Source: Haliotis cracherodii
Taxonomy: Eukaryota
Assembly: GCF_022045235.1 (NCBI RefSeq)
Contig: NW_027266343.1
Coordinates: forward strand, 44,640,001-44,704,000
DNA: 64,000 nucleotides
Direction: 5' to 3'
Shown here: one piece after another, positions 84 to 61,400 of the stretch
Layout of the letters: every line of letters begins with the position of its first letter
Position numbering within the stretch: the first letter of the stretch is position 1
Program-made: the position numbers and the translations under genes
The notes under the pieces: generated by a model
What the model was told of the DNA's origin: nothing
The model's input: the letters and a program-made list of their open reading frames with translations, nothing else
The model's database searches: none

Positions 84-171
84 CTGTGCTTTTGTGGTCT
101 GTTTTCAGTTGTCGACCTCTCCTGCTTGAGGTCGGTTTGCCATAAAATGATCCACTCTGTTTTTCAAATAC
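84..171 (-). CDS. PARP14: copy A exon 16, linker (VFEKQ...)
   Basis: tctcag|GTA...CAG|gttggc; phase 0 to 1. Confidence 0.78.
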
Positions 172-34800: not shown

Positions 34801-37800
34801 GGCTCCAACTGCTTCTGCATGCTCTTCATCCTTTTGTTCCAGACACAGTTCGTATACAGATTTGCTCATGGCAGCTACGTCTTCCTTTAAACCCTGGAAT
34901 AGGAAACATTCAAGCAAAGCTTATATGACATCCCCGACATCCAGTGATAATTCATATTAACTTTGTTACTGCAATTACTTCAAAACTGCTTTGGTGGAAA
35001 AAACATTGTGTTTAAGAAGATGTCAAGGCATACATATGTTATAACAGCTCACCTGTAATCTAATTCTACCTAAACGTGTGTTGATGTCTATGGAAACTCC
35101 ACGCTGCCTTGCGATGCTCTGTAGTCTCAAGATCTGCATAAGATACAACACGGTCCGTTATCAGCTCTTATAACTGAATCTGTTCGTGAACATTACATCC
35201 TATTAAATAAGGCATCATGAGGACTTATTGTGTTCTTTAGAAAATATAATTGAATACATACAATGGGTTTCAATAAAGAAATCTTTAAAAAATGGTTTGT
35301 AAAAGAAATGAACCAAAGTTTTGATGAAACACGTGAAGTAGTTGGAGTTGAGGGAGACATCCTTCCGAGAGCTCGGGTGTGTCACAACCTTTAATACGAT
35401 TACATGCATCCTCAATACATAATTTGTAATAATAAGACGAAATGCCGTCTTAAAACTTGATTCTACTTTAGGAATGTAATCAGAAAATGGACCTTTTTGA
35501 ACTAGAAAAAGAGAGATACAGAATTCAATATATTGGCAAAGAGAACTACCTTTTCTTCATCCAACGTCCGTATTGTGTCGTGTTCAACAGGTTGGTCATC
35601 GAACTCTTTGATACAAGCATTCTCCAATTTCTGCTTTGCAGACTGTATACATGTTTTGCTATCAGAGAAGAATTCCACTTCTACCCCATCAGCAGGAAGG
35701 TGTTCGGCGACATGTTGGCGCCGTGACTCAGTTTGACACTTTCCAGGTTGTGTTTTTGGCCTCGCACCTCCGTGGCCTACACGACAACATGTGGTTCAAG
35801 GTCATGTTGTACATTTTAAGAAAAGCTTTCAAACACACGTTATAGCCAGTATTTCGGTTAATACGTTCAAAACATTACCCATACAGCTTAACATACGGGA
35901 GGACGAAGGCGATGTAAACATGAAGCAGCCGAAGTGAGTGAGTTTGGTTTAACGCCGCTTTTAACAGTTTTCCAGTAATATCACGACGTGTCAGCTTAAT
36001 GTGGCATTTCCGGAAAGTCCGAAGTGATGCAGGTCTCTGACGTTTACCACTTCGATGAAACCCACGAGCACGGGTATGGTGCTGACAAACCTAGAAACAT
36101 AATCTGGGCAAACCCACAATCATAGGTTTCTGGCGTGCCCAAGGGACGCTACTCTGCACACCGAATCGCGGCGCCTAAGACGACTGGGCCCCCTAGCCCC
36201 CCGAAGCAGCCGAAAGAGATAAACCATGTTTCTATATCAATCATCGTACCTTTATTCTTGTCACCAAAGAAAGGCTTCTTTGCTATTCCTCGTCTGTTCA
36301 GCAGAGATGCCAGTAGGTCGTTGAATCGATTATACCTGTCTGGTTCGTAAAGGACGAGTCGTACTTCTGTGACATACTTCAAGTTAGACAAGTCTTGCAA
36401 TTCATCATAAAGATAGTCCATCAGTAGATGTTCCGGAACTCCCCCGAAAGGACCTACGTAAATTGTTATACTTGTTAAAAATAGTTCACTTTGTGTACAC
36501 ACGCATAATATTGATTCTGTGCAAGAGCATTTGAAAAATACACTGTTGGATAAAATGTTAGGGGATTGGAGAGTCCAAAAGTTTTCCATGCAACAAACTT
36601 TTCAGTGCTTTTTCAAAGTTCAAATCAATGGATGACAGCTTAAATTTGCATATCTTTACTCTTGCATTACAGCTCATATCACTATTAATAAGTGGCTACA
36701 GTTTCAGAGATGTCATATTTTCAATGTTGTGGAGAAAAAATCCATACGGACATAATGAAAAGAGAATGTAAACCATTTTAATATGATTTTTATACTTTGT
36801 ATATTGCATTTAAAAAATTACATTTGAGCTACAGATTAAAAACAAAGGCGTGGACCAATCCCAGTCATAACATCTTGACTTCTTACACTTGAGTATTTTT
36901 CATAAAAATTTCCCATCTATTTAGCCTATCTTAAATTATAATGCCTGAAACAAGACAACATGTTCTACAGTAAGTAAGAGTAAGTTTGGTTAACAACACT
37001 TTGAACAGTGTTTCAATGACATCAAAGTGTGTCAGCTTGAGCGGTAATCCAGTCTTTGACGTTGACCTCTTTTGTGAAACCCCAAAAGCACAGGCAGAAT
37101 GCTGACAAACCAAGAAACATAATTAAGGCGAATCTCGGTTCGAACCCACGATCACAGGTTTCTGTTAACTCTGAGGGATGCTAGTTTGAACGGCGAATTG
37201 CGGCACCCTTGACGACTGGGCCACTAGTTCCCCCTTTATTTAACTTAAGCAATCTTTACCTTGCCACAACACAATGCTTACCTTGTCCAAGAGCTGGAAG
37301 AGCCACAGATGAACAGTGCATTTTATCTGCCTGTTTGATGCAGGCTTTCAGAATGGCTTTAACGCCATGGCTGAAGTGAAAGGGGTCGTAATGGATAACA
37401 GTGTTGAATGTCGCTCCTGCTATTTGAGACACTGTTAAACCTTTGGAACGGAGATCTTTTTCTGTTGAAAAACGTAATGAGAATGTACATTCATATCAAC
37501 AATTGCAAAAAAGGTTTTGAAAACCCGGATTCAAATTCACATGACACATCTCTTCCATGGTTGTTTGCTGGCATAAGTAGATTAACATAAGCCATGCTTA
37601 CAAATATTCATTTCTGGTGTGATGTGGAATATGTCGGCAGATGATGCAATACCGATTAATCTTCATGGTTTAGCATATAAAACCTTTTCTACACAGCCTT
37701 TGTAATCAAATGAATATGTGTGCATGTCTGTTTATGATGTAATACTAATTTTTGCATATCCAAAATACATCGTGTACTGCCAAGAGAAAGGAAAGTGACT

Positions 37801-39235
37801 GTCATATCAAAAAAGGCAATTTTGTCGGCCATATTTTCAACCTTTTCACAACATTCTTTCCACCTTTCGCGCTTCCCCAAATAAGCCCTTATAATTTTTT
37901 TTTGAAAAAATACAGCCAGTCATGCATTTTCAGGGGTGTACAATCAAGCTGAATGCAAATAATATACATTATAACTTGTTCAAGTTTCTTTATTTCGTAC
38001 ATGTTTAGGCCAACGGCCCATGGTACATATATTGGTCCACAGTATTAATTATTGACTCACGGTAGATAAAGGCATAATACAAATATATTGCGGTATTTCA
38101 AATTGTATTTTGGTTACAGTCAGACATTAACATATTGAATTTATCCAGGGTAGGATGGACATAAAAATGTCATGAATATCTTGTTGTCTTAAATTATCAT
38201 AGGCTTTGCATATAAACAAAAAGTGGTATTCCACATAACCAAAAATACATAATTTACAAATCCTCAGGGTTCTAGGTACATTGTTATATCTTCCCGTTTC
38301 AATATATAAGGAATGCGAACTGCAACGAAAACGAGCTATTGCCTATCTAAATTTACCAATAGTTACAGCAGATATATATGGTTCAACACAAAATGACATT
38401 TTAAATAATGAATGTTAACACATTTTAGAGCTTTTAGAAAATTGCTGAATGCCAATCCTGTTCATAAATACATTTTAGACGTGATACAAATTCAGTAATA
38501 AACAGGTTTGGGGAATCAATACCCTGATTTTCCCAAACATAACCAAACCCAAATTTATTCAAGAGCAACTTGATTTTAGACACCCAATTACATTTACCAT
38601 TAGATGCTTCAAGAAACAACATATTGTAGCTCTTTTAGGGTAACGGGAATCGGGCATATTTAAAATCTTACACCAATATGAAATGCCGTGTTGATAAATT
38701 GAGATATATAAAGGATATCGTCCACATTCACCACGGACAGTATGTGGGAGCTTTAACACCTAAAAACTGCTTATAGCCTAACAAATGGACAGATTCAATT
38801 TCCTTGTAATTATCTACTCCCCAAATTGTCATGTATGTTATACCAGGTTTTCCAAAGCATGTCCTGAAAACGAACCCAAACTCTATGATAAAATACACTG
38901 AAGCTGTACGTTTGGAACGTTGGCTGAAATTTAAAATCCTCAATATTGGTAAAATATATTATTCACGAGTGGAATTGAATTATAGCCATGTGTATAACTT
39001 CTCCAGTTCCTTAACTAGCAGTTTCAGCTCACCTTTCTGTGTTCTGTTATCTGTTCCTACAGCTGGATACTTTCGCAAGAGAACTTGATTAATTGTTCCT
39101 GTAAGTAGGTATGTTACATAAATTATAGCTCACTTCACAGGAATGTCACACTGGTCTGATGACATCACTTCCATTTTAGATAACTCATCAAAATGTCTAT
39201 GTGCAGGACTTAGGGACCGACCATTTGATATCCCC

Positions 39236-39318
<83 letters not shown>

Positions 39319-42300
39319 GTGCGTGTGCTTGTGTGCACTTGCGTTTGTGTGTACAATTTATCTTTTTCGATAACATTTGTCTTTTTAACTGTCCATATTG
39401 AAAAATTAACCTCTCCTATCCAAATGATAAGCAATCAAAATTGTGGTTCAGTTTGGGTAGAACATGCTTACCCTTTTCGTGAACACCTGGTACAATCATT
39501 GATTCTCAAAGATCCTTTCACCACTATTTTGCCTTTTACGTCTTTTACGTAATGGAATCTGTTTCGGCTGATAATGGAGACTGGTTCTGAATTCTCAGGC
39601 GTTGACATTTTATTTATATTTTTCCCCAAAAAGGTTAAAGAACATCCGGGTTTTTTTCATATGACTGTATTTAATTTGTCATGACTGGTGGTTATGGCAA
39701 CAGACAGAGTTCCAATTGCGAGTGTTCTTTAACTCGTTTCGAGTAGTATATATTGGTAAAAAGATACTGACAAGGTGTCACAAATATTTGAAGTGGGAAT
39801 TACCTTTCTTAAGATTAAACTGTGAATCCACACTATTCATGATACAGTCCACGTTTTCTTTCAAAAGATCCCCATGCTTCAGGGTGAAGTGGATGTTGCC
39901 AAATGTAATACCTCCACTTACATCAAATGGCTCTTCTGTTGAATGAATTAATAGAAGGTGTTGATAAACTAATTATATAAGAAAACATCTATGATATACA
40001 CATACGGATGATGCAATTGCTTAGTATACATTTCATTTTATTCATGATAAGCTAAATCAGTCACTTGGCGGCTGGAATCTACATGTTCTTATCATGAAAG
40101 TGAAAGGTTGGGTATGATTACAATCAAGGTGAGTATTACTTAGCAGGAGTATATCTGCAGCTTTCAGAAACATGAAGAGTATAAGAAAAAGAGAGAACCT
40201 GTGCTTTTGTGGTCTGTTTTCAGTTGTCGACCTCTTCGGCTTGAGGTCGGTATGCCGTGAAATGATCCACATTGTTTTTCAAATACCTGAAAAATGAAAT
40301 CATTGCAATGTTCTTTACATGTGTGACTACATAAAACAGATCAATATTATTAGCCGTACATTATTAGCCTTTCATTAACCATACGTGTATGGTAATTCTG
40401 TTGTTAATTATTTGAATAGTCTTAGTCAATTTTTAAAGTTATCAATGATTATTGCTATATTTTCTTGATTAGACTCCAAATCGTGGTACTGTCTCCTACC
40501 TTTGCCACATCATTGTCTTTGTCATATATGACAATCTTGATATCAATAAGCGTGGTGTCAGGGTGGTTTCTCCAGAAGTCATCTATTGCTGTGAACATGA
40601 TTCTGGCAGATACATCTTTATCATATCCGGACAATCCTATTCCCAGTGTAGGGAATAACAGACTCGTGAGCCTGCTCTTGTCAGCTTCCTCCAGGCAGAG
40701 AGTAACAGCACGGTGTAGATTCTAGAGATACCACAGATACCTAGTACAGGTAACGAATTACATGCTACGTCACTGTCAACAATATCACTCCCTCCTTTCC
40801 TTTCAAGATAAACTTTTATTTGTGACCAACGTCCACAAGTTCCAGACATTTTGTGTTTGCATTTTATGTAATGTGACGCTTATCATATATGCTTCCGATT
40901 TGTCACTATCACCTTCAGAAAAAATGCAAGCATCTAGCTAAATGATTAAGATGCTTCTAAGTGCTCTTTCATTGAGCTGGTCAGTTTCTATTTGGGAATA
41001 CACCTGTGACTGCATATGTGACGAATGAGATAACCCGTTCGTGTATTACAATTGCTAAGTTCTACACATATTACAGACAAGAGAAAAAAACTTAATTCAT
41101 CTAATGCTCGTCCTGACGTATCTATACTGCAGTGCACTGTCTGGCTTCCAATTAATTTCTAATCAAACTATTGCATCCCAGTAAACTATATCACCGAGTC
41201 TGTTGTTTCTTCTCCTCATTAGTGATTTTTAGTCTCTGGTTGTTAATGCAGAATCAGGTAGATAACAATTAATTATCAACACAATGTGTGATTACAGTGA
41301 AGTCTGTGATTAGCTCAACAATGATCACATTTACCTGTCTTCTATTCCCAACATAATTAGTCTATTCTGAATTCGTTAAGCCCTTTTGATTTTTTTTATA
41401 ATTTCTTCTCTTCAAATAAATGTTTGCAGTCAATTTATAAAATGACTATTTAGTCAGCCTTCACGTGCTGTTACGTGAGCAGGAAAATGCACTTTTGGAA
41501 GAAATATAGCATGACTGTTCACATTTTAAATATGACAGTAAAACTTTCATTTAACTACCTCTTCGCCTCGAGCTCTGTTCCACGGTGGTATGACAACATG
41601 GTAGATTTCAGACGCCTGTAGAAGACCAGCTGATGTAACTGCCAAACTGTAAGTTCCATTTGGATATTTCCTTCGACATTCAGCTTCCAAAGCCGGACCA
41701 GCAGCATCTGATATAGCCTTAGATAGTCTGCCTCTTGAAAGATTGAGTTCTCGGTCCGTTGGATTCACAATAACGTCTGCCTGAGGGGTAAATTGCAAAA
41801 TATACATTTATATGTGCTAGACATAGGTCATATAAAATATAATCAACGTATTCAATAGTTTTAACTTATCTGAATGTGTGTACTTGTTTGTTTTGTTTTT
41901 TGGTGTGTGTGTTTTTTTACCTTAAATCTGGTAATTGATCCACGTGATAAGATCACCCTCCTCCCAGAATCTGAAACAAGATTATTCCTTCATTAGAATA
42001 TGGGTTCATTCTGTTTTACATTGCAACCAGCATATATACATTACACTAGCCTGTTCGCACTTGAGTTTGGGACAGACAAGTAAGTGGCTGACTCAGTTAT
42101 CTCCGACAAATAATAAACAATGATAACCAATGTCACAATGTTATCATGCAATCGCCATCTTCGTCGGCTCTTATCACAATCATTGGAAGGCATGAGACCA
42201 CGTTCATGCGAGCTGATATTCAGTATCGACATATTTGGTACACATGTATGTATTTATGGAGACTAAACAACTTCAGTGGTGCTCATCGAACAGAGACAGA

Positions 42301-45300
42301 AGTACAACTCACCCGAAGTTCGTTGTCCACCCGTTTTCATTTGCTGGGCTTGATCCTTAAACACCTGTGTTATCAATATCAGTGATTCTGATTAGAAACT
42401 TCAACACAGTCTGTGATGTCATGGTGGTTTTAGATCTAGAAATCCTCAAAGTAACCCAGGTCTGGTGTACATTTAGACGATACCATTAATTCTTCTAAAT
42501 TAATCAGCAACATGCCGGGGGGTATAGCTAACCTTATTTGGTGTTCTTGAACATGAGAAGTGAAAGTTTGCTAAACTAGCTCTTGTATCTTTAAAATCCT
42601 TCTACCCAATACTTACAGTGTTTTCTTTGCTGTTTCGGGTTCTCTCAATCGTTTGGGTGCATATTTTAATGATATTCTAAAATCACACCCATGCCTTATA
42701 TCGATGACTGGAAGAATATTTATTATTTGTAACATGCATAAAATATTTAAGTTCACAAGTTAAAGTCAAAATCATATAAACAAACACTGTGAACAGTGTG
42801 AAACATATTGTCAGTAACATTCAAAAAGGTTATCTGGAAAGGTTACTGCCCATATGATACAAATTTAATAACTTGAAATGTCATCGTATCCCAATTGCGT
42901 GGATCGATGCTCATGATATCAATCCTTGGATTGTCTGGTCAAGACTCGATTACTTACAGACCGCCGTCATATAGCTGGAAATTGCTGAGTGCGGCGTTAA
43001 ACAATCAATCAATCAATCAATAATAACCCGAAAGGTGTTTACAGCCCAAATAAAACAAATTTACTCACTTAAAGGTGTTTGCATTTTATGCAAAACCAGA
43101 AGCAAACCCATCACAATTCTTTCCTGAATGCCATCAGAAAAATAAACCCGTTTGACTTTACAAAATAAGGTAACGGCTGTTCTTTATTCATTTTTATATT
43201 TGTTGTCTAATGTAGTCCCATATCTCTAACTACCCCCAAAACATGTCATATGACCTCCATGACTTCACCAAAAGAAAACTAACAGAAGCAGTCCATATTC
43301 GCCGCCACAAGCCATCAATCAACAGAGATCAAGGCTATTTCATCCCATCCGCCTACTATGAACTCATCAACCAATAATCACCTGTTTATTGGCTTCATGC
43401 CCCTATTGGCTTCTAGCTATGTGTTTTCTGCCCATCGTGTTGTGATAGCATAATCCCTTTGTTGTCACACCTACCTATGTTATCCCACTCATGTATGCCC
43501 TTGTTGTTACTGTTAATCCTCTATTGTTATCATCCACTTGCTATATATATTCTACACTATGTCCCTCATTCAGTCTTGCTTGACAACGGTATAAGGATCT
43601 ATACCGAAACGTCGCCTTTTACAGTATTAAAGAAGTTGTTATCCATAAAAAAATTGTGTCTATCTTGTCATGTCATATGAACTTTTAGTTTCAGGACATG
43701 ACTTCCCAAACACATCCCTAACACAGCACAAGTTTGAAACAAAAGGTCAGTGACAAATTTATAATCGCAGACATGAGATGCCAGACAATTTCAAATTACA
43801 ATCAAAGTAGTGTAATTGTAAATACACTCTTAACTGTGTTTATACAAATAAAGCGATACAACCATTTCCATATCCAATAGAAAGCACGATTCCAACTATA
43901 ACATGAGCATGTGTTTTATGAATCACTATCAAAGTGATTCTATTTCCATTGCTATTAACAGATGGCATGACCTTGTCACACAGCAAGTGCAGAGGAAAGT
44001 CGGAATCGTACAATTTCTTGTGGCAATAGAGAGCTTTTGTCGCTTCTATTTAAGTGTTATGAAATGTATCACAATTGTCATGAGTTAAATGTTTGGACAA
44101 TTAAATTGTACAGCCAAACAAAGGAGACAGGGTTCCAGTACAGCCAAACAAAGGAGACAGGGTTCCAGTTTAATAGAAGCTATATCACCAGATAATATAA
44201 TGACTTTTTCATGAGCTGAGATAAGGTTGTGCAGCGATTTCACAGTAGCAATAATCGCAACCATAAACGTAACCATAACATGCTGGTTAATTCAGACCTT
44301 GACCAAAGGTACTTTGTGACAATTCGAAAATTGGTGACTTATATGATATATTTGAATTATATAATGTTCATTTTAAGGCTTTTCATCAGTTTGAAAGATT
44401 CCTGATTATTAAATTTTGCTGAAGTTTATGATTCAACCTAATCGTGTGAGTGAGTTGGCGTGGTCTTGGGACTGCCTTTGAACAGTGTTTGGTTATATAT
44501 CAATGTTAAATGACTAGCCATTTACATAACAGTATTACCACTACATTTGTTTGCGATCAAATTCAGCTGTTGGGATCAATACCAATACACAAAATCACAA
44601 AACAATATAAATAGATATATATGTGGTGGAGGGGTATATGTGGTGGAGGGGTGAGGGTGGGGCATTTACAATGTCACGGGGGTGGGATGGGGAATGAGTG
44701 AGTAGGGGGAAGAACCTTACAACACAAAGTTACGATAAAGGCTCTGGATGAGGTGATGAAAAATGCAAAAACACAAGAACAGATAGCCACAGGGGAAAGG
44801 TTCAATACATATTTTATAACTACTGGGTGTCATGAATTTATTATTTGATGGTAGCAATAGGTTCCCAAAAACAGATTCATCATGTATACACATGCACAAA
44901 AGTTAAGCGCCACCATATTCACAGTCTCTTGATTTCACGTGTGGGAATCAGAAATACGAAATATGATGATGTATGACTGAATTAGGCTTCTATAGTTTCG
45001 TGAACCCGTGAAGTTTGTCCAGATACCACAAGAAAAGCGTGCCTTTCGTGTTCCTGCAGTTCCCCTAACCTATAAATAGTGAAATTCAAGTTTCAGACAC
45101 GTGGTTGCATTTTGCTCCTGTGTAAGATTCCCTTTCCAATAGAGGTTGAAAATCAGCCATTGTGAGGAGAAAGTTAACGAACGCTGAAAGATGGCAGGTG
45201 ATAGGCATGTCAAATGCTGGCATGTCATGCAGGGCCTTTGCAAGACAAATGGGTCGTCATCACAGTGTTATCACTCGTTTGATTATCAAACATGGTCAAT

Positions 45301-48300
45301 CCAATGATGCCAATGACGGGCATAGGTCTGGTAGGCCAAGAAAGACCTCTAACAGAGAGGATAGACGTCTTTTCAGAATAGTCAGATGAAATCCATTTGC
45401 CACTTCAACAGATTTAAGACTGCAGTGGATTACCCATCAGAGACTCTCGACGATGACCGTAAGGCGTCGCCTGGTTATAACGCCAGAAGTCCAGTAAAAC
45501 GTCCTCAACTGACTGAAAGCACAAGCGGAATCGTCTGATATGGGGTCGTGCCCGTAGTCGGTGGAACTTGGCCAACTGGAGGAGGATCCATTGGTCTGAC
45601 GAGTGTCGAATGGTGCTACGAACTGTTGATGGCCGAATACGCGTTTGGAGGCAACATAACACTCGTTTTGCTCCAAGGAATATCCAGAAGACCATAGCAT
45701 GTGGCGGGGGGTCTGTCATGAGATGGGGTTGTGTTTCCTTCAGCTGCAAACTTCCGCTGGTGACAATTCGTGGAAACCTGAATGGCCAACAATACCAAGA
45801 TGCCGTTCTTCATCCAGTGGAAGTCCCTCAGTTAGACAACCATCCTCTTCAGACAAGACCTGTTTACATGGACGACAATGCTAGACCACACAGATCTCGG
45901 GCAGTTTTGCCTTATTTGCGCCAAGAAGCTATTGCCAATCTTCCTTGGCCGTCCTGTAGTCCGGATCTTAATCCGATTGAGCATCTCTGGGACATTCTTG
46001 GCCGGAAAATCAGACATCGATCTCCCAGTTCAAAATCTCCCTGGACTTGAAGCTGCACTTCATGAAGAATGGATCCGTTTGCCTCAGAAAAGCATTCAAC
46101 GACTTGTAATGTCCGTGGATCATACCCACGTTACTGACGTTTCTGTCTCTGCACTCCCTAGGGTGTCTATGTGACACCTGATATGATCTGCTGATATCAT
46201 GACAGTTACATGACAAAAAAAGTTTTTCAATGTTTTCTGATCCTTCAATTTCTGGTCTTCGGTAAAATTCCTTTCTGCTCATATTCTTTTGGAACACAAG
46301 ATAAACTTGCTTTGGGACAACTTTTGCATCACATGAGGTTTACATATACGGCTTATAACAATCGTACATCTCGTTTTAATAGTCATCATTATGTGCCAAA
46401 AGTAACAAATCAAGACATGAACCTGGTAGTTAGCATACCTTATGTATATGGTTAAAAAGCTTGATTTAACGCCCTAGATTACATAATTAATATTTTATTG
46501 AAGACTTTTACATAATAGGTGAAACCTTGCCTGGCATAGGTATTAGTTGTTTTTTTTTTTGTTTAACGCCGTACCCAGCAATATTTCAGCTGTATGACGA
46601 CTGTCTGTAAATAATCGAATCTTGGCCTGATAATCAAGTCTTCGTTTACCATGAACATTGATATATGCAATTGACATTCATGAACCACTCATGAACCTGA
46701 CCATTCGATCCCGGTAGTCACTTTTCGACAAGAATGAGTTGCTGACGTTCTTCAACGGGGCATATGTGTCTGTAATGAAAAGATATAAAAAAGATTATGT
46801 GTAAAGAAATACACCAAACCTGTATGTTCTCCCTATCCCTGGGATACAGGATGACTCTTATGTCTGTGAGGGATGTATTCGGGCACTGTGACCAGAAGTC
46901 GTGTATGGTTGATAACATAGCCTCGGCTACCACATCTCGAGAATATCCTCCAATCCCTGTACCAAGTGCTGGCATTGCGATGCTGGAACAGTTGTGTCTG
47001 TCAGCAGTTGTTAAGCATTCCTTAACTATGTCTGCCACAGCCTGCAAAAGAGATTTCTATTTCAATTGAAACCCACATATAGAAAGTGATATTGGGGCAG
47101 ATATTTTCGACGAGCACATTTATATAATATATATCAATAGAATGAACACGAAGGTCATGAAAACTGTTCATAATGCCGCCTGCCATGATGTCTTTTGGCA
47201 AAGCTTTTTCCAGCATAATCAACTTTGAATACATCTATTTCAAAGATAAAAAAACAACGACAGTAGGTGCGCAATTAGAGAAAGAGATGGTAAAATAATG
47301 TATGCATCCCCAACAGTTCTGAAATGGTGCTTTCTTTTGGTCACTGCAGGTGCCTTTTTTCTGTACCTGGGTTTTATGGGAGTACTCTAACTGTAGTTGA
47401 TAGCCTATACCCGAATATTTATCAATGCAGTAATACAGTTAGGGCTTATAGATATATGGATTACCGATCGATATGCTTCTCTGTGAAGGCACAAGACATG
47501 AAGGTCAAACTTTCACAATTATTTTATTTCAGGTGGCAGGGGCATTTTATTTGATTCAAACCCTGCTCTTGCGATCATACACCTGTATACTAAGTTTTAC
47601 CTTTACCTTTACCTCAAGTACAGCTTTACCTTTTTGACAGTTGTATTTTGTGTGTGTTGACGAAGAAAGGGCATTCGCAGGGGTGTGGATGTCTTCATAC
47701 AAACATGATACACCTTTTTGCACTTCAGTTTGAAACCAGGTGTGACAACAATTGAACCAGGGTTAATGCCTTGTGGGTATATCCTGCAGGCAGACAATAA
47801 CTCTGGACCAGCGGCTTCAAGAATGGCTGTCGAAACTGGCCCTGCATTTTGTAAATTCAATTCCTTGTTCGTAGTGTTGACGATAACATCTACCTGAAAA
47901 ACACAAAATACATGTATGTGTTCTCGTGTGTATAGGTGTTTACAAAATGTTTACAAAATATTTACAAAAGTGAATCTGAATTCTTCCCAGACCTATCACA
48001 ATATACATAAAGAAAATAGATTATTATTTGGACAGGCTTCATTAATTGTCTTGTCGAGTCATTCCTGCTCTCACAGTATTAATAGCAGCATACAAGAAAA
48101 ATGGTGTATAAACTGATACTGTAAACCACAGCCTGATGAATTTGTTTCCGAAAATGTTTTTCTTATCTACATAACAGGGAATTAGCACACCTGTCACAAA
48201 TAACTTGAAATTGTACTGTATCAGTAAACATTACCATTTTCGAATGTGAGATTTTTATTTGTTATCAAAATACATATTTGAAGCCCTGACTAACACACAA

Positions 48301-49404
48301 TCTACATTGACACCTCTATATTTACAGAAAAATTCAACGAAATTATACATCATCGTTTGTCATCATCTTTCATAAAGTTTGGCATGATACACATGAATGC
48401 TAAGATGATACAGGTGAATAAAGGTTTCATGATGTTTATACCTTTTGTTCAGCAATGCTTCCTTCAACCAGCTTTATTTTATACCCACACTTCACATCTG
48501 ATAGAGCTACAATGAATAAATAGAAACTGCATGAAATATATGAATGTGGTATAACTATTAAAACATGGGACTTCGTTATTGCCTTGGGTCCATGATGCAA
48601 TACTGTAGTACATACACTCATAGCTTGTCTTGCCATGTAGTCAAACCAGAGAAAAAATAGGCCTCGGATAACGATGCCATTCACTATTTCAACTTTTTAT
48701 ATATTATCATATGCAGATGGTTATTAGTTTTCAAGTTGACATACCAGACACTCTTCTCTGTGTTCTGGGGGATGATTGTTGCATCTGAGCACCTGTCCCG
48801 CCTTGTAAACGTGGTTGTATGTGAACATTTGATGCCCCTAAGACGTCTTGCAGCGAGTTTACAAAGCTGTCCACAGTTTTGCCGTTCACTGTACAGAAAT
48901 AAACGTCCTTGATTGTACTGGATTTATGTTTCACAAAGTAGTCTCTTACTGCAGTGGTTATAACCTTTGTAGCAGCATCTTTTGGATATCCAAAGATTCC
49001 AGCACTCAAAGCAGGTATTGCAATAGAGCTCCCCAGTCTGTTGTCTGTAAGCTCCAGACTTCTTGTGACAGCTTCTCGCAATTTTTCCTTTTCTTTCTTC
49101 TTTCCTCCTTCCCATCTTGGACCTACTGCATGCACAATGAAATCACAGCTACCTTTCAGTCTTCCTGGCTTCGACAACACAGCATCTCCATCCAGAACTG
49201 CACCATACGAATTCACGTGTCTGGTACACTCATCTTGCACGTCTTTTCCAGCTGAAATATGTTCTAAAATATACTTTCTTCTCTACCAATTATGGATACA
49301 TACCTGGTAAATCACACTTGGCATATTAAAATATCTGTATAACACGTCATTGACTGTAAACATAATCCGTTAAAGTAAACAGTTTCAATGTAGAAAGATT
49401 TCGG

Positions 49405-49488
<84 letters not shown>

Positions 49489-52400
49489 CTTTTTTTAAAA
49501 TGTATTACCTTTGTCAACAATGACTTTGGCAAGACCTCCACAGTGATCTAATCTCTCATTAGCAGCATTGACAATGGCACTGACTTTCATGGTCGTAATG
49601 TCTCCTTCTCTTACATAGATCTTCCTTCCACCCGCTATGTTTGAGACAGCCACTATGGTGGATACTGGCTCTTGAGTGGCTGCATTACCTTGTCCTACGT
49701 GTTTGTCTTCTTCCTCCCCCTTCTCTTCATTAACAACCTCTATGATACATCTTTCAACCTTTTCTACATGAGAAATAATGTGTCCTCCTTGTCCTGTTTT
49801 GAGCATTCTGGCCATGCCAGCTTTTTGTGACAGTTCCTTGTGTGTGATTACTTTGTCGGCCAGGAAGGTCAGTTTCTTTCGGCATTTGTCAATTCCTTCT
49901 TTTGAGCCATTAATAGTGAACTCGGTTCCATTCTCCTGGTATATAATCCGGACATGATAATCCTTCAAATCTTTAGCAATTGTTGCAACTTCTTCTTTGT
50001 AGTGGGCCAGAAGGAATCTGTGCTGCCCTTTAGTAAACGAGAGACGTGTTTCGTCTACGGTGTTGGAGGACAAAAACATTTTGACTTCAGCATAAACACA
50101 TTCCACATCATCCTTGATCCCCACAATGAGTAGATAATTCTTGTCTTGGAGATTATGAATACTGAAGGTGTCAGGCAAATGATCAATCAATGATTTCCGT
50201 AGGCTTTCCCACGATTCTGATTGCATTAGTAACTGCATTTTTCCTTCAAGGGGAACAACTCTTTCCACCACAGTATTAAGGATCATTTCACCAACTTGTC
50301 CCACTTTTTCTGGAGTTGTTGAAATTACTTCTAGTGACGACTCTTTTGCACGCCATGCTGCTACGATGCCAATTTCCTTCAGTTTGTTCCTCAGACCATC
50401 CTCAACTGCCTTCTTCTGAAGCTCAGTTAGTTGCTGTTTGGAAACATGTTCAATCTCTGAAGTTTGCGTTCCATTCACCAGTTCATACATTTTAATCGTT
50501 GCTTCTTTCACAGAGGTTTCTGGACCAGACAGATGGACATCATTTGCATCAAACCTCGCACTCACTCCAGGGAATTGTTTTATAATCTCCTTAAAACCGC
50601 ACTCTCGGAGAAATTTGGCTTTAAGAGGTGCTAAAGGTTTCACAATTTCGGGATTTGGGGGGCCTTTTGAAGATATTCCATGCGCAATATGTTTCTCAAC
50701 TTCTGCCTTGACTTCATTAGCTTTCGTAGGAATGCCAACAATTGCTACGACCTCCTTGTCAGTGTACATCCTTACCTCTGTTTCATCAACATTGACCTGC
50801 ATTAACATTGTATCAATGTTGCCCTTTACTTCCATGGGAATCTGAACCAAGAGATGAAGAACAAATTCACTTATGACCGACCTAGCTGAACTCTTGTAAT
50901 CCATTCCATCAGCAGTTGTAGTTCCACACTCGCTCCCGACTTGACGAAATACGAACAATTGGTTGGACTCATTCAACTTTAATGACAATCCGTAACCACC
51001 TAGTTTTTCTTGAATGTTTCTGAGTACTTTGGGTGACTTCTTCAGAAACCGTGGTACAAGTTGGTCAACACCTTCAAGGGGTATGGCGCCTGACATCTGA
51101 GCTGGTGTGGTGTCATTGGACTCAGGTGACTGCCATCCGACACATTTGTGATGGAGGTAGACTTTTATATTTGCTTCTCCAAGTGTATGCACTCTCTCGC
51201 TGATCTGCTCAACAACTGAGAAGAAAAAAACAGGCAAATATTCAATATATCATTATGTTTCTTTCATGCTTTGTTCTAAATGTATGCATGTAGTATTGAT
51301 ATTATTGAAGCTATCACTATGCAATCCATGGCAAGCATTATTTCTCATATCAGTAATTTATACTGTAAATTCACGGCTCCGAATCTTAAGCGGACCATGT
51401 ACTGTTGCCCCTTGTTCTTCCTCACCTTTGTGGTCAGCGAGATGGACAAGGTAGCATCCACGTTGATCTAATCCTTCCACTTTGACTACCTCTGAACTCG
51501 TATCATTTCCACATTTCCGGGTTTCAAAGTAATCTGAAATTGTCTCCGAGGCAACTGACAATGGGACGCCCTCGACCCTCAGTACTCTGGTGGCAGGTAC
51601 CTTGAACACTGTCACCGCTTTCGTTTTGAAGGGTTTGTTGTTACAAGCTGACTGGAGTTTGGATATATCTGAATGAAGTATGATATATAATTTGTTTGTT
51701 GTTTGTTTATTGTTTAACGCAGTACTCAGCAATATTATTAGCTAAATGACGGCGCTCTGTAATCGAGTCTGGACCAGACAATCCAGTGATTGATATCATG
51801 AGAATTGATCCATGCAATTGGGATACAATGACATGTATCAACCAATTCAGCGAGCCTGACAACAATAACCCATTAGTCTCCTCTTATACCGCAAGCATGG
51901 GTTGCTGAAGACCGGTTCTTCACGGGAGGTATGTGCAAGTACAAAGATAATAGTCAAACATAGCCGTACTTTATCCTCAAAGGTCGACAAAGTGACCATT
52001 TTATTTGATTATTATGAATTCTTCAAGTGATTTATTTGGCAAATTCTAAAATATAACTTTTTATGAAGAATACGATGAACACAGATAAAACATAACCTAT
52101 TTTACACATAATGTATTTAATAAATATAAAAAAATAATGGACAGTTCTTTGTTTTCATGAGAATTTTTAGATTAGATTTTTAGGGAAATTACTAGAAGGC
52201 TGTTTGGAATATGATAATTACACACTATCTAGGTGGTATCCTTTTATAGTTCCAAATATTTGATTTAAAATTGAGATTTGATTATGAGGTTATTTTATGT
52301 ATTACAAACAAAAGCAAAAATACAGGCAGAAGGAAACATCTTTATCCTTTTAATAATTATAGTATTACTTGCTAATAATATGTCGAAATCAAGATATGTA

Positions 52401-55400
52401 CCACGGGAGCCAATCGTATTTACATAAACTTCGATATTTCTCCTTACCAATAGGGTCGCTGAAAGTTACCAACAGCACACCATCTTTGGCTCCTTTGTTG
52501 ACTCCCTTCACATCAGCATTGGCCCTTGCTTGAAGATAGATAGAAAGGTCCTCTGAGTCCTTATCGAGGTGTGCACCTGGATACTTCAAAAGAACTTTGT
52601 CCACATAGACTGGCGTTGGTGTATGAGGTCTTATTTCCGCTTCTTCCTTTGCTATGGTTACTCTTCCCTTCTTGACGAGTCTCTGTGCCACTGTAAATAT
52701 TTAAAAAAAACAATATGTTGTATCTATTACTGAACTCTAAAGGTATATACATAAATTCACTCTTTCACATCATTTAGTGAGTGAGTTAAAATTTTAATCT
52801 CATCGGCAGTCACATCATTTAAAGGAGGAGTCGCAAATGTTATGCCTGAAACAGACCAATGATATTTTATAATTTTAAAACAAAGTGATCGAGGTTAGTT
52901 GTATTAAATAAGTAATTAATTAACTATTTGTAATTTACTGAATTTTCAAGTTGTGTACAAATAACCTTTCAAATATTTACATCATTTCTTTTGTTTCCCA
53001 TGTCGGAAGAAATCTGTGACGTATGTCTACAATCATCCCCATAATCCAGTGTATCATATCCCTATTCCATTATCAGAAATAGTTTGACTTAATCACTACA
53101 ATACCTGAAGTGACGTGACCATCCCCGTCACACTTATTGGTATAATTCTCACAATATATTTCTCTCGCACATGAGTATAATTTGTAACGTCGTCTATTTT
53201 TAGTGTGCATAACCTTCTGGTCTCAAAACGAATGAATGGTGACGAATACAAATATGGTATTTACGTTTAATATTAATTAATATACTGAAAAAATCCCACA
53301 GAATGGTCCAAAATACACAGAAATCAGAAAGAGTGAGCTTTGTTTGATGCCACTTTAAATTGGCGCTGACAAACCTAGAAACATTAATCTGGGATTCGAA
53401 CCCACGATAAGTTTGTGGGACGCCTAAGGGACGCAACTCTCCTTTTTATAAAATACATGAATTGATTTCATTACATTACACGTACCGAACCTAGAAAACG
53501 TACCTGCAGGATCTTTGAATGTAATGAGAAGCATGTTATTTTCCTCGTCATTTTCGAAGTGTTCTACATCTCCTCCTCCTCGTCTTTCGTTTTCAAAATA
53601 ATACTTGAACTTGTCCAAACTTCCTGATGCAAAGTCACATCCATGAACTTCAATCGTTCTCCTGGCAAAAACCAGTTCGTCTGCATCGGGATACTCTAAG
53701 TGGTGAACTGGAACTGTTTAAACACTTGTTAATCCTTAACACAATCAAGGAAGATGAATTTGCTTGACTTTTTACAATCTCAGAAATTCTGTCAAAAGAT
53801 TTGTACACCACAATCCCACATGACAAACATAGGGAAAAACATAATTCCTTGATCCATGTTTTTTGTTTGTTACAAAACGTAGTGATCATAGATACAGTTA
53901 TATATCTATCAGAGGATCGGGTCAATTTGTCAACAACGAAAACAAATGTCATCTGAAGTTTATTGGGAAAACAATATGTAAAATGTTTGACTTCTTCGTT
54001 GATAACGTATATGTAGAATTTGGGGGTAAGGCATTTAGGGAAGAGGTGGGCATCCACATGGGTACCAATTATGATCCCCTGATCTGTTTCTGTGCATTTG
54101 AATCAGAATTTCTGCTCGGATTGGCAAAGTCAAAACAAGGACATTTGGCCATGAAGTCTAACTTAAGTTTAGCCAATTTCCTTCTACTGATTTACCCACC
54201 TGAACTGATATAAACACCAGTGAGACCACTTCATCTGTTTCATATTTTTATCTATTCTCCACAAGACTGTATGAAAAGAGGGATGACGTCATCTTTACCT
54301 TTTTGTGGAGCAGTATTCCTCCAGCCAACATTTCACAACTTTTGAGAGACAATCGAGCATGTTCAAAGAGCCTCATGCGACTCTTGCTAAGAAGTTGTTT
54401 GATCAAGGTTACAACATTCAAGTCCTCAATCAAGTTTTTTTAAAACGGTTTTATGACATTTCCAAATTTGACGTATCAGTGACAAGAATGGTGTCAGATG
54501 CATTTTCCTATTTTTACTTTAACATATGTTGCTGAGTTTGTTTTTGGGTGACCAATTGACTTGCCTTTGCATCTTTTGTGATGGGTGTAAACGGTAGGGC
54601 AGTATCCGCTCGCCCTTTCGCGAACACCTGGTCTCATCACTATTTGATTGTGATTCATAAACACACGCTCGAGATATAGTCGGAATCGTACAATCGACTT
54701 TCATGAACATAAAAAGGGTTTACTATTCAAAGGAATAGCTTTTCACTATAGCTTGGGTTTGTTTGTTTGTTTTCTTTATTCAGTGGAAATGAATACAATC
54801 CCTTACATACCTGACATACCCACGTGGTTAAGGATTATTGGGCCTTATCTTAGCAACTTCTTTCAATAGTGAATGTGACGGTGGGATAGGGTTTGTGCAC
54901 CAGAAAAGAAGAAGGGTGTGGAAGAGGAGATAGGATAGCAATATCTAAGTCAAGAATTGGTCATTTTTTTGTTTAGCTCAACACTGTCTGTGGTATCCAG
55001 ATATGTTTCTATGTTGTGATAATGTTTTATGAAAAATACTTGGCTAAAGACAAGAATAATTTTATTAACGAGAAGTGTTAATGTTTTCAAAGTATTAGAA
55101 CGGTGGTTTTCGAGAATGCTCAATCAGGTTTCTTGTCTCATGAAAGAAAGGATGTTCTGACCTTTCAGATTCACAAACACACCCTTTGCAAGTGTTATCC
55201 AATACAGTACTGAGGGATAAGGTTTATTAGTTTAAAATAGAGACAATGTGCTCCTTTTAATTCTACTACTATTCTTAGGTTTGCAAATGTTTTCAAGTGC
55301 CCAGTATCTGTAAAAAAATATCTTTCAAATATATCTAACACCACTTCCAAACCACAAAAACATTTTTATGACGCCTAGAATTTTAAATGGTTCTTTTGAC

Positions 55401-58400
55401 TGGTGCAATGGTATATTGGGACATAAATGTTCATTTGAATTCTTCCTTGAGCCATTCCAAGTAGCCATATTTTGGTCACAATTGATTCTTAAACACAAAG
55501 CTATAGCAAATGTTCTTAGAATACTTATAAATTCTGGGAGGTTTTCTTCTCATCCCTTTAAAGTAAAGTTGGCATCATCTGCATATTGGATTATTAAAGT
55601 ATTCCATTCATTTGATATCAATACCTTTTTATAGATTTGCTACATTTGATTGAGCTTGAAAGTAGTTCAGCACATATAGTAAATATATGAATCCAAACTC
55701 AACACTATCACTAAAAACATTTTAAACATCTGCAGTAACAAGTAAGCCTGGTATTTCATGTATTTCACAATATTTCTAAATTTTGTATAATATTCGTTTA
55801 TTATCTCCAATAAAACGGCCCTTAAGAAGACCCTATTGTGTCTCACTAATCATATCTGGGAGGGAATGTTTCATCCCATGGGCTATTGTTCCAGGTGCTA
55901 TTTTATAGTCCATGTTGAATAAACTCACTTGACGTCAATTTTTCAAGAAACGTCGATCGCGACCTTATTTAGGGGAGCAGGTAATGATGCCTTGTCATTG
56001 TATTTATAAGCATGTACATATACCAACGTTGTATTAATATCCTTTTACAAAGTCTCATATGTTGGGACAAGGAGTATGACATGCTTTTTAAGATCTGCAG
56101 ATCCGTGAACTAAGCAAAACTAAGTGTAAGTGCTTATTGGATTGTTCTCACCTGTACGTTGCATGGGCAGTTCAGGTGAGTCGTGCATTTCTTGAGGACG
56201 TGGCATAGGGACTGAACTGACTGGGTGGTCGACGGTGATGGACGATAATGGTTGTGTGTATCGAGTAGGTTGAGGTAAACCACTTCCGATGTTTGGCTGA
56301 TTTTGAAAAAGAGGAACTGGCGCAGGTGGTTGTCCTGGGAACCTAGGAATCGAACCATGTGGATACTGGTAATAAGGTGGCCAGTAGTAACCCTGGTTTG
56401 GATTCACAGGATAATGATTCCATGGCGGCGGCCATGGGACTCCTTGAAACGCAGGTGACTCAGCATAAAAAGGCATCCCTGGCGGGTGCGTGGGACGATA
56501 ACCAGGATGAAGTGGCTGCCTTTGTGCAAAACCGTCGGAAAGGTGTTCAATTCCGCTTGTGTTTGGGTAGACCCTGTTCAATGACACGAATGTTCCAGTA
56601 ATACCTCCCCTCCCACCAGCCTCTGGGTTATCTATATTGTAGTTCATTGACTCAAAACCTGACATGGGCGGTTCTTCTAGTATATCCTGACCATGTTGAT
56701 AATCTCCTGGAGATGACCCGAAAGCATTGTTGGACCTCAGAGAATGCATCGTACCCTGTAATATTGTAATGTGAAAAATAATCAGTGAAGCAAGGTTTCA
56801 GATATTTGTAATCTCTAAAGCCCTTAAACTTATTGTCGGCGGTTTTTTAACATGCTATATAATGTTATATATAATAAATACATTACTATTCAAATATTTT
56901 CTGCATAACTACAGATACCAAATGTATTAACAAATATGAACGCAGCTTACTAAAGGTCCATACATTTCTAAATCGGCAAGAATCAATGTACTTTTGTGGA
57001 ATATTGTTGCAATACACAACAGTTAAACGTACTTTACACAATGTTACTATGACCCAAAATACCCGCTTAGAAGAGTATTTCAAACTGTTTCACAAAGAAA
57101 ATCCTCAAGAAATATCATCATAGCGAGAAACACACATGCCAAAGTTCAGGTTCCCCAACTCTGGAAAGTTCATGGAAGATTGTCATATATAACACTGGAG
57201 AGACCATAAGAGCAATATAGTTCTGTCATGTGGTCATTTTGAAAATTAGATTCGAACCTCTTTAAGGCAATTAGGTGTCATCATTGTTGGGAAAAAGTAT
57301 GTGAAATTTCAGCTTTATTCGTCCAGCTGTGAGGTGATGTTTGCAGTGTGAAGAAAATACATTTTGGAAGGACTTGGGCGAGAAAACCCTTTCCATACTT
57401 ATAGGAAATTTACTCTGAATGCAGTTGATTGTTCGATTCTGACTGTATAATCAGCATGTGTTTATTGCAGGTCTTCGCAAAAAGTTAAGCGTATCCTGCC
57501 TCACCGGTGGCACCCGTCACAAACACATGCAAATGCAAGTTAATTCTTCCCCATGACAAACAGGAAATTCTCACTGATGCGTACAATTTGGAACAGTGTT
57601 CCACATGTCTTCCATAAAACGTTTTCAAAGCTTTGATGAAACAACTTTTGAAGCATGGTCAAAGAGCAAAGGTCAAATAAAGGTTCAAATTTAACCCTAT
57701 TACTGACTGTCCACTTACCAAATATTATTAAATTTTAAATATAAAAAGGTTAAAATTTAGATTATTGGAAAACCCAGAATATGTGTGTGCCCAATTACAT
57801 TACATGGCCTCTGTATCAGGCCAGATGAGTTAAACAAAAGACAAACCAGAAGGAAATAAAGCGACAAATCCCTTTCCATATCTGCATAAAGCAGAGTCGA
57901 TTGTACAATTCCGACTATATCATGAGCATATGTTAACTGAACGCTAACTGAACCACACATAACATAATATAAGACATCGTTTCATGGGAAATATTCAGTC
58001 TGACCATGTGTCTGTGCTGTATATACTATGAACATGGATTAGAGAATATAAAGACCTTACATCGAACCTGATAGGGAAAGTGTTTTAGTGTTTCACATAC
58101 CTCAGGTTCCGAAGCAGGTGTCCTCCATTCTTGCGGCACATCTTCAGCTCCACAGGGTGATACAGTCAGCTGACATCCTTGGTAATTTGTAAATACCTTG
58201 ATTGCATTTGCATCTGCAATGGTTAATGGGTTGAAACATATAACTTGTTTACATAGATTGAGTTTATGAAAACTTGTGTTGATAAGTGTAAACATCAATG
58301 TCTTCAAGCCATTGTTACCAAGGCATAGAGCATCTAGGGATCAACAATCTGTCCAGGTAGCCAAAAGTACCTAGTGCCCCTTCTTACGACATTCGTGTCG

Positions 58401-61400
58401 CCAAGGTTACTTTATGGAACAAAGTCTTTATGGTCGTGATGGGTTAAGCGTTAAAATGTCAGAATGCCCGGGATGTCCACCCTGTCATGTGTTGCCCAAA
58501 GTGATAAAAATCTACCACTTTTAACACTCGCTTTGTCATGTATGTACCAAAGAAACGCACATCTCAACTTCGAACCTCATACAATTTATTTATTTGCAAA
58601 TATAAATACACATAGTACTGGAACGACGTGTGTCCAAAAATGTTCCATTCATCGTTTTGGGATACGATCACTGAACAGAAACTGTTCATATCTATGAGAC
58701 AAACTTGCCGGAACGTGTCCTTCATGGCACATGACAAGCACATGGACTGTTGGGTCTCAAAGGTAATGATACAACAAACGTTCATCAGTTGAATGTGTGA
58801 CACCGAATTCACCATGTCCAGATTAGGCACAAACGATTGTATATCTAGCCTTGGGCATGACTGAAACTGGTATCATGGCACAAGGAGTGAAACATATTAC
58901 GATCTATCGCATGAAACATATTCAAGAAGTGTATGACATAACATCAAGTGCGTGTAACAACAGGTGTTTAGAGACTTTCGGGGATTATTTCAGATAAAAC
59001 TACACTATGAAACATGATCATCGTTTATTGCCATATGCACAAATATCATTTTCATGAATCCATTGACCGGGTTTTTAGATGGTTCCAAGCATGAATTCAG
59101 AAGTTAATACCCCAGTGATCACTCGATAATGACATATTTCCACCGAATTCCACTCCTTCACCTTGTCATGTCCCAAGTGCTAGTAGCACCTACTCACAGT
59201 ATGCCCTTTGGGGGCACGGGGGGCTCAGTCGCCTGAGGCGCCGCAATTCGTTGTGATTTCTGTCCCTTTTGCAAGCCAGATACCTATGATTGTGGGTTCG
59301 AATCCCGGTTCGCCCCTATCATGTGTCTAGGTATTTCAGCAACATACACGTACTCGTGTTTTTCACCATAGTGGTTTTCCTCCCACAAGCTGAACATGTG
59401 TTCAAAGCGGGGTTTATCTCAACTCACTCACTCACTCACTGGTATCCCCTTTAATAGGAGGGCAGTAACATCGATTAGTGTAAGGCCCACACCGTGTAAA
59501 TTGACTTTTGTGTAGGACATAGATGTCCCTCCGGCCCAGCACCTGAGTTTTGTGTGGGGACTTATATAGAGGATATTATATGTGTGTTCATGTCATACTA
59601 TGTCTACGACACGAGCGTTTAAATTCCGGTATTTCCCGAGCGAGAGTGAAAATGAACACGAATATAATGTTCTTTTTATTACCGAAGAAGATGTCTACAT
59701 ACAGATTCGAATTTTAGTGTTTACCTATAAGGACAGAAAGTCGCAACAGCAGCGGAACCACAATTTGTCGAATGACGACAAAAATCTTCAGCTATGACGT
59801 CGTTTATAGTGTGACGTCATTCCGACCTCACGTCACAATAACATTCGTGACCAAATCGTGTTATTCCGTGACAAACATGTTACGGAAAGGGGCGAGTAGT
59901 GAATAAGATTCGAATGACATGACCAATGCCGTCCGGATAACGGAAACAGTATAGTGTTGTCTCGTGACGTAATATGGACGAAAACCCTAGGGCACTTATG
60001 ACTTTTCTGAACTCAGATATGCGCCTGTGTTTTGTGTAACGATAAATAATAGGGGCTATTATAATCGTGTTGATGCCATAGAAAGGATTCATTTATATGT
60101 TTGCAAAAAGTATTTAGGTGTTAAAATAAACACTTCCAGCTTGGTGGTGTATGGAGAATGTAGAAGATTCCCTCTCTATGTATATTCAAATATAAAAATT
60201 ATTAAATACTGGCTGAGACTTATTGACATGCCCTCATATAGATTGCCAAAACAGTGTTATAATATGATGATAGTTTATGATAATAATGGGAAAAGAAACT
60301 GGGTTACAAGTGTTAGAGAATTACTTTTCAGTTGTGGCTTTGGTGATATTTGGCAAAACCAAAATGTGTATTCCAAATCAATGTTTATACTTTCATTAAC
60401 CCAGACAATTAAAGGATATTTATTTACAATCTTGGACTGCATCATTGACTCTAACAAACAAATGCTTTTATTACAAAATGTTTAAATCAGAAATAATTAT
60501 GAAGATTATTTATCAAAAGTTAATGTTAAAAAATTCCGAACGGCTCTTTCACGTTTTAGATGTTCTTCTCACGACCTTTTAATAGAAACAGGGCGCTATG
60601 TAAACATTCCTCGTGAAAAAAGAATCTGTAATCTATGTAGTTTAAACTCAGTAGAAGATGAATTTCATTTCTTACTTGTATGTCCAGTGTATTTACACCT
60701 TAGAGAAAAATACCTGCAAGCTTATTATTACAGGTACCCTAATATTATTAAATTTGTTACATTGCTGTCAAACACAAAAAGAAGTATCTTACAAAATGTT
60801 TCCATGTACATATATTATGCCTCTTTATACCAACAGAACCTTATGAAAGAATAATCTTAGCTGCTTGGTATTAGGAAACTATTGTGTATATACATTAAGT
60901 ACATATTTATAGATATTTGCCATCTGAATAACTACAAACAAAAGAGTTAGAAATGGTATTAAACTACTAGGCTGTCATATGATATTGTGGGACGCGATAT
61001 TACAAATGGTCAAGTATAGTTATATGTATATGAAATGATATGATGTGACATGACATGATGTGAAGTGTTGTGGTGTGATATGATACATGAGGGGATATGA
61101 TGCAATATATTATGTGTATTATAGAAATTGTGTAAATACTGTTTTTTAATGTACATATTATATGGCTTGCGGTCTTCCAGTGTTGAATAAATATTGATTG
61201 ATTGATATGAAATAAATTGGCATGGAATGACATGGCATTATATGGTATGATATGATAAGATATGATGGGACAAGCTATGACATTGCTAATGTGTTGTGTG
61301 ATATGACATGTTGAAATGTGATACAATATAGTTGTGATATATGGTACGATGGTATGTATAGTATGTTATGATAATGTTAAATGAAATATTACTATATAGT

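Follow-up and report, generated by a model that had tools for sequence, protein, structure and literature searches.

Three macrodomains have been regarded as the ancestral and general state of metazoan PARP14, that of molluscs included (PMC10221186). PARP14 has been duplicated frequently, with sponge members that carry from one to three macrodomains. PARP9 and PARP15 are considered to be partial duplicates of PARP14 (PMC4038475, PMC10221186), and the PARP15 of elephant and manatee is devoid of the first of its two macrodomains (PMC4038475). At the level of gene structure, symmetric exons have been recognized as a route to tandem repeats (PMC3632108). Here we describe a PARP14-like immune gene of the abalone Haliotis cracherodii (gene A), in which exons 9-12 form a cassette for the second macrodomain (cassette 1) and exons 13-16 a cassette for the third (cassette 2). 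The second cassette probably stems from an old in-frame duplication inside the gene, each of the two exon groups being one whole type-2 macrodomain between phase-1 introns. The window, i.e. the whole stretch of 64,000 nucleotides (nt) that was analysed, corresponds to C80:44640001-44704000 and holds gene A on the minus strand together with most of its tandem paralog B.

A query with the large exon 7 returned one match, 100% identical, the PARP14-like protein P0191 of Haliotis cracherodii (2276 amino acids); the exon numbering used here is that of the 26 coding exons obtained by mapping this RefSeq protein onto the window.

31612..62723, minus strand: PARP14-like gene A, 26 coding exons, 2276 amino acids, with RRM/KH region, macro 1, 2, 2, 3, WWE and PARP (RefSeq XP_071089495.1)

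Pfam matches to RRM, Macro, WWE and PARP were obtained, the tandem macrodomains being followed by WWE and PARP; for the N-terminal RRM/KH region PF23085 scored above its cut-off in one of the three exons tried and PF23248 marginally below it. The macrodomains are four in all, in the order 1-2-2-3, rather than the three (1-2-3) by which PARP14 is recognized. Gene A is a variant PARP14-like macroPARP, like other invertebrate members with repeated macrodomains; gene, domain and mechanism all belong to familiar kinds, and RefSeq already lists the protein. The protein cluster of gene A also contains the product of gene B and two isoforms from H. rufescens, and both cassettes are present in all four of these RefSeq proteins from two Haliotis species. 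The 25 introns of gene A comprise 15 of phase 1, 10 of phase 0 and none of phase 2. Exons 4-8 and 17-20 are, every one of them, phase 1-1.

The two cassettes consist of the following exons.

48506-48442, minus strand: exon 9, which opens cassette 1, 65 nt, phase 1-0, with a weak acceptor and a second in-frame AG at 48497
47893-47630, minus strand: exon 10, 264 nt (261 nt in paralog B), phase 0-0, a long variable loop occupying its 3' end
47041-46820, minus strand: exon 11, 222 nt, phase 0-0, with an alternative acceptor at 47056 that gives 237 nt
42364-42313, minus strand: exon 12, which closes cassette 1, 52 nt, phase 0-1
41970-41921, minus strand: exon 13, which opens cassette 2, 50 nt, phase 1-0
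41780-41559, minus strand: exon 14, 222 nt, phase 0-0
40721-40500, minus strand: exon 15, 222 nt, phase 0-0
40286-40199, minus strand: exon 16, which closes cassette 2, 88 nt, phase 0-1

The sizes and phases that a sequence-only reading of the window had given for these exons proved exact for all eight, and all eight have AG/GT ends. With 603 and 582 nt the cassettes comprise whole codons between borders of equal phase, and the frame stays open when either of them or both are deleted in silico, in agreement with the proposal that each is a phase 1-1 module that can be added or removed in frame. Such an equal-phase unit is called a class 1-1 module. The three inner introns lie at identical profile columns (15, 93 and 167) in both cassettes, and the boundaries that had been described as equivalent were found to be so: K/VDVIVN and K/ADVIVN at one of them, /VFKDQ and /VFEKQ at another (the slash marks the boundary). 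The motif GSI, which had been taken as a further mark of common origin, is indeed present in both cassettes, but it is too frequent among type-2 domains to serve as such a mark, being carried by 6 of the 41 type-2 domains of this genome and by 14 of 205 external ones; four vertebrate macro 2 domains read EGV, GNI, GFI and GRI at this position. The exon-by-exon match of the two cassettes is far beyond chance, yet it reflects the homology of a layout that is family-wide.

Tandem paralog B (RefSeq XP_071089488.1), which is approximately 92% identical to gene A at the DNA level, has the identical cassette layout.

2179..11015, minus strand: paralog B cassette 1, exons 11015-10951, 10410-10150, 7499-7278 and 2230-2179 (65, 261, 222 and 52 nt)
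84..1835, minus strand: paralog B cassette 2, exons 1835-1786, 1647-1426, 606-385 and 171-84 (50, 222, 222 and 88 nt)

At its 3' end (47630-47700) exon 10 encodes a loop of 24 amino acids that is longer than in other type-2 modules. Genes A and B share 58% identity in the loop as compared with 90-99% elsewhere, and it contains a 3-nt indel; a contig of run X1 has a 6-nt gap within exon 10. It is possible that the loop is a fast-evolving surface. Exon 11, used alone as homolog query, gave no match in what was a weak search.

To follow the layout through the gene family of this genome, we took 100 stretches, each of 10 kb, that surround macrodomain or PARP matches, and parsed 28 loci from them with a spliced profile aligner working without any prior for intron position. 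In its first pass the aligner recovered the joints of gene A from 11-12 to 16-17 that have RNA support. In the type-2 modules of the 28 loci, phase-0 introns were found at columns 15, 93 and 167 in 38, 41 and 37 of 41 modules, respectively. The linker introns were called phase 1 upstream in 21 of 26 and downstream in 31 of 40 cases; the remainder were phase 2 (two upstream, two downstream) or were not called (three and seven). Type-3 modules have their inner introns in phase 1 and at other columns (19/19, 18/19 and 19/19); their upstream border is phase 1 in 17 of 19, and downstream eight are phase 1, seven have none and three are other. Intron position alone therefore assigns both cassettes of the window to type 2, and exons 17-20 to type 3. 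In this gene family the ancestral macro 2 is accordingly a symmetric block of four exons. Extra introns, probably intron gains, were seen in macro 2 of the 44.58 Mb gene (C80:44586687-44586946) and in macro 1 of the 31 Mb genes (C80:31071836) and of the C23 1.62 Mb gene (C23:1625810).

For the phylogeny 150 homologs were gathered and 25 clusters named, among them primate, echidna, frog and tuna PARP14. The tree comprises 87 domains; it leaves out nine near-duplicate paralog loci, two degenerate or broken type-2 parses and five type-3 domains of high divergence, and of the 148 external proteins that gave matches it omits 135. One set of constraint tests, which gave the p values of 0.21, 0.64, 0.11 and 0.19 below, was made on 39 type-2 rows (LG+F+G4, 5000 resamples). 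An invertebrate type-2 group (96/92), separate from the macro-1 and macro-3 clades, contains both cassettes. They had been expected to group with vertebrate macro 2; in the tree the invertebrate type-2 group, vertebrate macro 2 (100/97) and macro 3 (100/99) form a three-way fork. A position of cassette 2 with vertebrate macro 3 or with macro 1, which had been named as the outcome that would speak against a duplication, was not observed: the former is rejected by the approximately unbiased (AU) test (p = 0.00096), and the cassette lies outside the macro-1 clade. Compared with human structures, exon 10 matched macro 2 better than macro 1 of the same chain. The macrodomain that clusters with vertebrate macro 3 (100/99), in a clade excluding both cassettes, is the fourth.

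36250..39935, minus strand: fourth macrodomain, of the true macro-3 type, exons 17-20 (132, 66, 180 and 204 nt), each phase 1-1

This domain (36250-39935) is long-branched (0.9), and at loop 2 it has the sequence GQGPFGG, differing from most type-3 domains.

The anticipated sister relationship of the two cassettes was not recovered; cassette 2 pairs with the single type-2 domain (99/96) of a paralog at 44.78 Mb (C80:44776000-44797000), which is the closest paralog of the 3' half of gene A and has a PARP15-like order reached independently. An exclusive sisterhood of the two cassettes is not rejected either (AU p = 0.36 and 0.21 in two tests), and a clade of the four window cassettes plus the 44.78 Mb domain equals the unconstrained tree in likelihood (difference in log likelihood 0 versus 0.2; p = 0.64). 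A tryptophan at column 142 is found, among the 41 modules of this genome, in exactly these four cassettes and the 44.78 Mb domain, and in 2 of 205 external domains.

Of the proposed intragenic tandem duplication, the type-2 identity of both cassettes, their phase-1 borders and their open frames are borne out; the sisterhood of the copies is neither recovered nor rejected. Several results weigh against the duplication. The cassettes are 41% identical, which is below the 42-45% that each of them shares with some unrelated type-2 domains; blastn between the two cassettes detected no DNA similarity; supported sisterhood was found in none of the trees; and the AU test allows cassette 1 to group with other paralogs (p = 0.11 and 0.19). 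Rare residues common to both number six (mean 2.4, standard deviation 1.6, n = 243), the top unrelated pair reaching eight, and exon 14 alone scored higher with human macro 3 (28.6 bits) than with macro 2 (24.7 bits). Moreover, the paralogs share ancestry, so that the layout counts measure conservation and are not independent draws, and linker calls are prone to error, the aligner having misplaced at least one border (paralog B, second pass) and also two splice sites for which RNA gives the position. The last point touches the suspicion that the layout is a coincidence or an artefact of reading short exons, exons of 50-88 nt being easily miscalled and the aligner having erred on some; this is hardly credible, as it is ruled out by the probable-RNA joints, the RefSeq protein and the same layout across the 28 loci. 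In another reading gene A originated as a chimera, by unequal recombination between tandem paralogs that joined, at a phase-1 linker intron, a 5' half through macro 2 to a 3' half with macro 2, macro 3, WWE and PARP; the outcome would look alike, but the cassettes would not stem from a single intragenic duplication. We consider this unlikely. The tree with cassette 1 beside the 31 and 52 Mb paralogs, although not rejected by one AU test (the p of 0.11 given above), is 29.5 log units worse (resampling of estimated log likelihoods, 0.04), and Trp142 and GSI tie cassette 1 to cassette 2 and the 44.78 Mb domain. A chimera would fit the finding that the third and fourth macrodomains and the last PARP exon of gene A are nearest to the 44.78 Mb paralog (99/96, 100/90 and 75% identity), that neither a large exon 7 nor a macro 1 nor a second type-2 exon was found within 36 kb upstream of that paralog, and that the grouping of gene A macro 1 is, with weak support (94/63), with other paralogs; but the 44.78 Mb gene is explained equally well as a partial duplicate derived from the 3' half of gene A, in the way that PARP15 derives from PARP14.

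The transcript data are assembled contigs of four runs from four studies; none of the runs that contain this stretch is recorded as RNA, and the RNA nature of the four was guessed, in agreement with their spliced joints. The evidence is drawn from the 15 joints listed out of 43, and contigs drop rare forms. Joints 11-12, 12-13, 15-16 and 16-17 are present in all four probable-RNA runs, joints 8-9 and 14-15 in three of the four. The skipping of whole cassettes, which the sequence-only reading had envisaged, did not show up: among the joints listed there was neither an 8-13 nor a 12-17 junction, the skips being those of single exons. In a single contig of run X1 (780 nt, depth 7) exon 8 is spliced directly to exon 10; the loss of exon 9 shifts the frame and leads to a stop 25 codons downstream, and the transcript is likely a decay target. 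Exon 9 (48442-48506) has two weak in-frame acceptors 9 nt apart. The acceptor of exon 11 lies 15 nt farther upstream in RefSeq P0191 (237 nt), contigs of runs X1 and X5 using the 222-nt form, and the H. rufescens isoforms X1 and X2 differ by precisely the five amino acids of the longer exon 11. In an H. asinina relative an annotated isoform is without one inner exon of 75 amino acids. A Glandiceps isoform that is shorter by 198 amino acids was considered as a cassette skip and rejected, since it is due to an alternative start. A regulated modular splicing, yielding isoforms with two, three or four macrodomains by block skipping of exons 9-12 and/or 13-16, would draw on the facts that each single skip and the double skip are in frame and that the acceptor scores of exon 9 (2.4) and exon 13 (4.8) are low (exons 10-12 and 14-16: 3.8-11.9), but it is very improbable: the one listed skip breaks the frame, and the annotated isoforms differ by the five amino acids (ortholog), the 75-amino acid exon (H. 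asinina relative) or the start (Glandiceps). Both cassettes are likely spliced in constitutively.

Under an old in-frame duplication the starting point would be an ancestral 1-2-3 gene, in which a pair of breakpoints in the two phase-1 linker introns would double the middle domain. The event would predate both the split from the 44.78 Mb paralog, which would have kept only the second copy, and the split between genes A and B. The phase-1 borders permit such events at the DNA level; they are ancestral and no adaptation of gene A, and the macro 3 type shares this upstream border.

What the added domain may do can be judged by comparison with macrodomain 1.

48745..49629, minus strand: macrodomain 1, encoded by the last part of exon 7 and by exon 8 (49251-48745, phase 1-1), with NAAN..GG and GIF motifs, predicted hydrolase

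By inspection, macro 1 has the catalytic Asn/Gly of loop 1 and Ile-Phe of loop 2, and both cassettes are without them (criteria of PMC10221186 and PMC10470015). PARP14-like macroPARPs are characterized by mono-ADP-ribosyltransferase and macro-1 hydrolase activity, and the motifs of macro 1 accord with the latter. The domain added by the duplication is predicted to be a non-catalytic ADP-ribose reader. Human PARP14 binds ADP-ribosylated protein through macro 2 and 3, and these two domains make macro 1 more efficient (PMC10470015). The extra cassette of the abalone protein may, by analogy, be a further reader, which would raise the avidity for ADP-ribosylated targets or feed macro 1.

Over the 28 loci the number of type-2 modules ranges from 0 to 4 and that of type-3 modules from 0 to 2, and the variability claimed for the number of type-2 domains is borne out among abalone paralogs as well as other animals. 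The tree contains eight within-gene sister sets in other genes, six of type 2 (C11 and C23 genes of this genome, Octopus, Babylonia, Littorina and Glandiceps) and two of type 3 (the 31.07 Mb gene of this genome and Potamilus), which corresponds to at least eight independent duplications within genes; for the near-identical within-gene pairs an assembly artefact or gene conversion is also conceivable. The repeats of the Octopus protein are near-identical sisters. In the C11 gene each of the two copies was parsed into a block of four exons, and a phase-1 intron separates the blocks, a cleaner case than that of the window. Among 75 external proteins with a PARP end, 14 have at least two clear type-2 domains and nine at least four macrodomains, in a search that favours repeats.

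That the four-exon block is also the unit of loss found no confirmation in close paralog pairs, where none of three natural deletions matches it: the 17.92 Mb gene has lost the two inner 0-0 exons of macro 2 and retained the outer two, the 10.83 Mb gene has lost three 1-1 exons of macro 3, and the 52.74 Mb gene has lost all four macro-3 exons. An ortholog of the 227-nt linker exon was not found in the 52.5 and 52.74 Mb genes. The direction of gain and loss is deduced throughout from the ancestral 1-2-3 order.

Further observations concern individual paralogs. In four of them (C11:5435091-5435942; C80:46052775, 46091350 and 52267791) the large exon ends before the start of macro 1, and the predicted hydrolase domain appears to be lost. 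In the 31.19 Mb gene the frame of the large exon is broken (C80:31189607-31191359), and in the 31.13 Mb gene a macro-2 exon is shortened (C80:31132359-31132502), which suggests that these are decaying copies. At C23:1776903-1921116 and 3132000-3146200 several loci have paired type-2 macrodomains and no clear PARP match in the stretches examined; the layout of the four-domain C23 locus resembles that of H. asinina XP_067675256.1. A 70-bp tandem repeat of an exon end is present at C23:1682501-1682995, and at C80:4452256 and 4455719 the last PARP exon is doubled.

The window also contains remnants of mobile elements. In intron 11 (45517-46171, plus strand) there is a transposase-like remnant, which we take to be of the Tc1/mariner type; it is absent from paralog B, and related copies occur in probable-RNA contigs. 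Broken reading frames at 3030-4580, 59991-60851, 53845-54210 and 16435-16788 (plus strand) and at 38130-38958 (minus strand) are presumably remnants of reverse-transcriptase retroelements.

Recurrent turnover of macrodomain number in mollusc PARP14-like genes is the modestly new part of these results. A literature search, which covered few subscription journals, retrieved no paper on repeated macro-2 cassettes in molluscs; supplement S1 of PMC10221186, listing 741 macroPARPs, may include such architectures. Exon phases account for how the number of macrodomains can change. One may tentatively go further, though this is less likely than not, and see in invertebrate PARP14-like genes an accordion of reader domains, in which ancestral phase-1 linker introns let type-2 and type-3 macrodomains come and go repeatedly within genes, driven by the conflict with viruses over ADP-ribose marks, three being no fixed metazoan state. 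If the turnover were adaptive, the abalone paralogs with 0-4 readers would be a natural series on the effect of extra readers in an antiviral writer-reader-eraser enzyme.

Gene A resembles metazoan PARP14 (PMC10221186, PMC13224862) in its RRM/KH region, the catalytic motifs of macro 1, type-2 and type-3 domains that are predicted to be non-catalytic, WWE and PARP, and differs from it in the order 1-2-2-3 versus three tandem macrodomains. The tandem duplication of the gene in abalone has its counterpart in lancelet and sponge (PMC4245714). Within-gene repeats of type 2 (or type 3), of separate origins on the tree, are likewise found in Octopus XP_029633869.1, Babylonia XP_076462556.1, Littorina XP_070212581.1, Glandiceps XP_077997138.1 and Potamilus KAK3595886.1; compared at the level of protein only, the copies in these are young (branches of 0-0.4), whereas those of the window are old (41% identical). 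As in the duplication of symmetric exons, a unit flanked by equal phases would have been doubled in tandem with the frame kept (PMC3632108); unlike there, the abalone unit consists of four exons for a domain that is intracellular. Owing to its three inner phase-0 introns, further in-frame units are possible, and one of these, the two inner exons, has been lost in one abalone paralog. With PARP9 and PARP15 gene A has in common that macrodomain number changed by whole domains, through loss by partial gene duplication in PARP9 and PARP15 and through a probable gain inside a full-length gene in gene A. The paralog at 44.78 Mb has the PARP15-like order 2-3-PARP, but with a WWE domain added.

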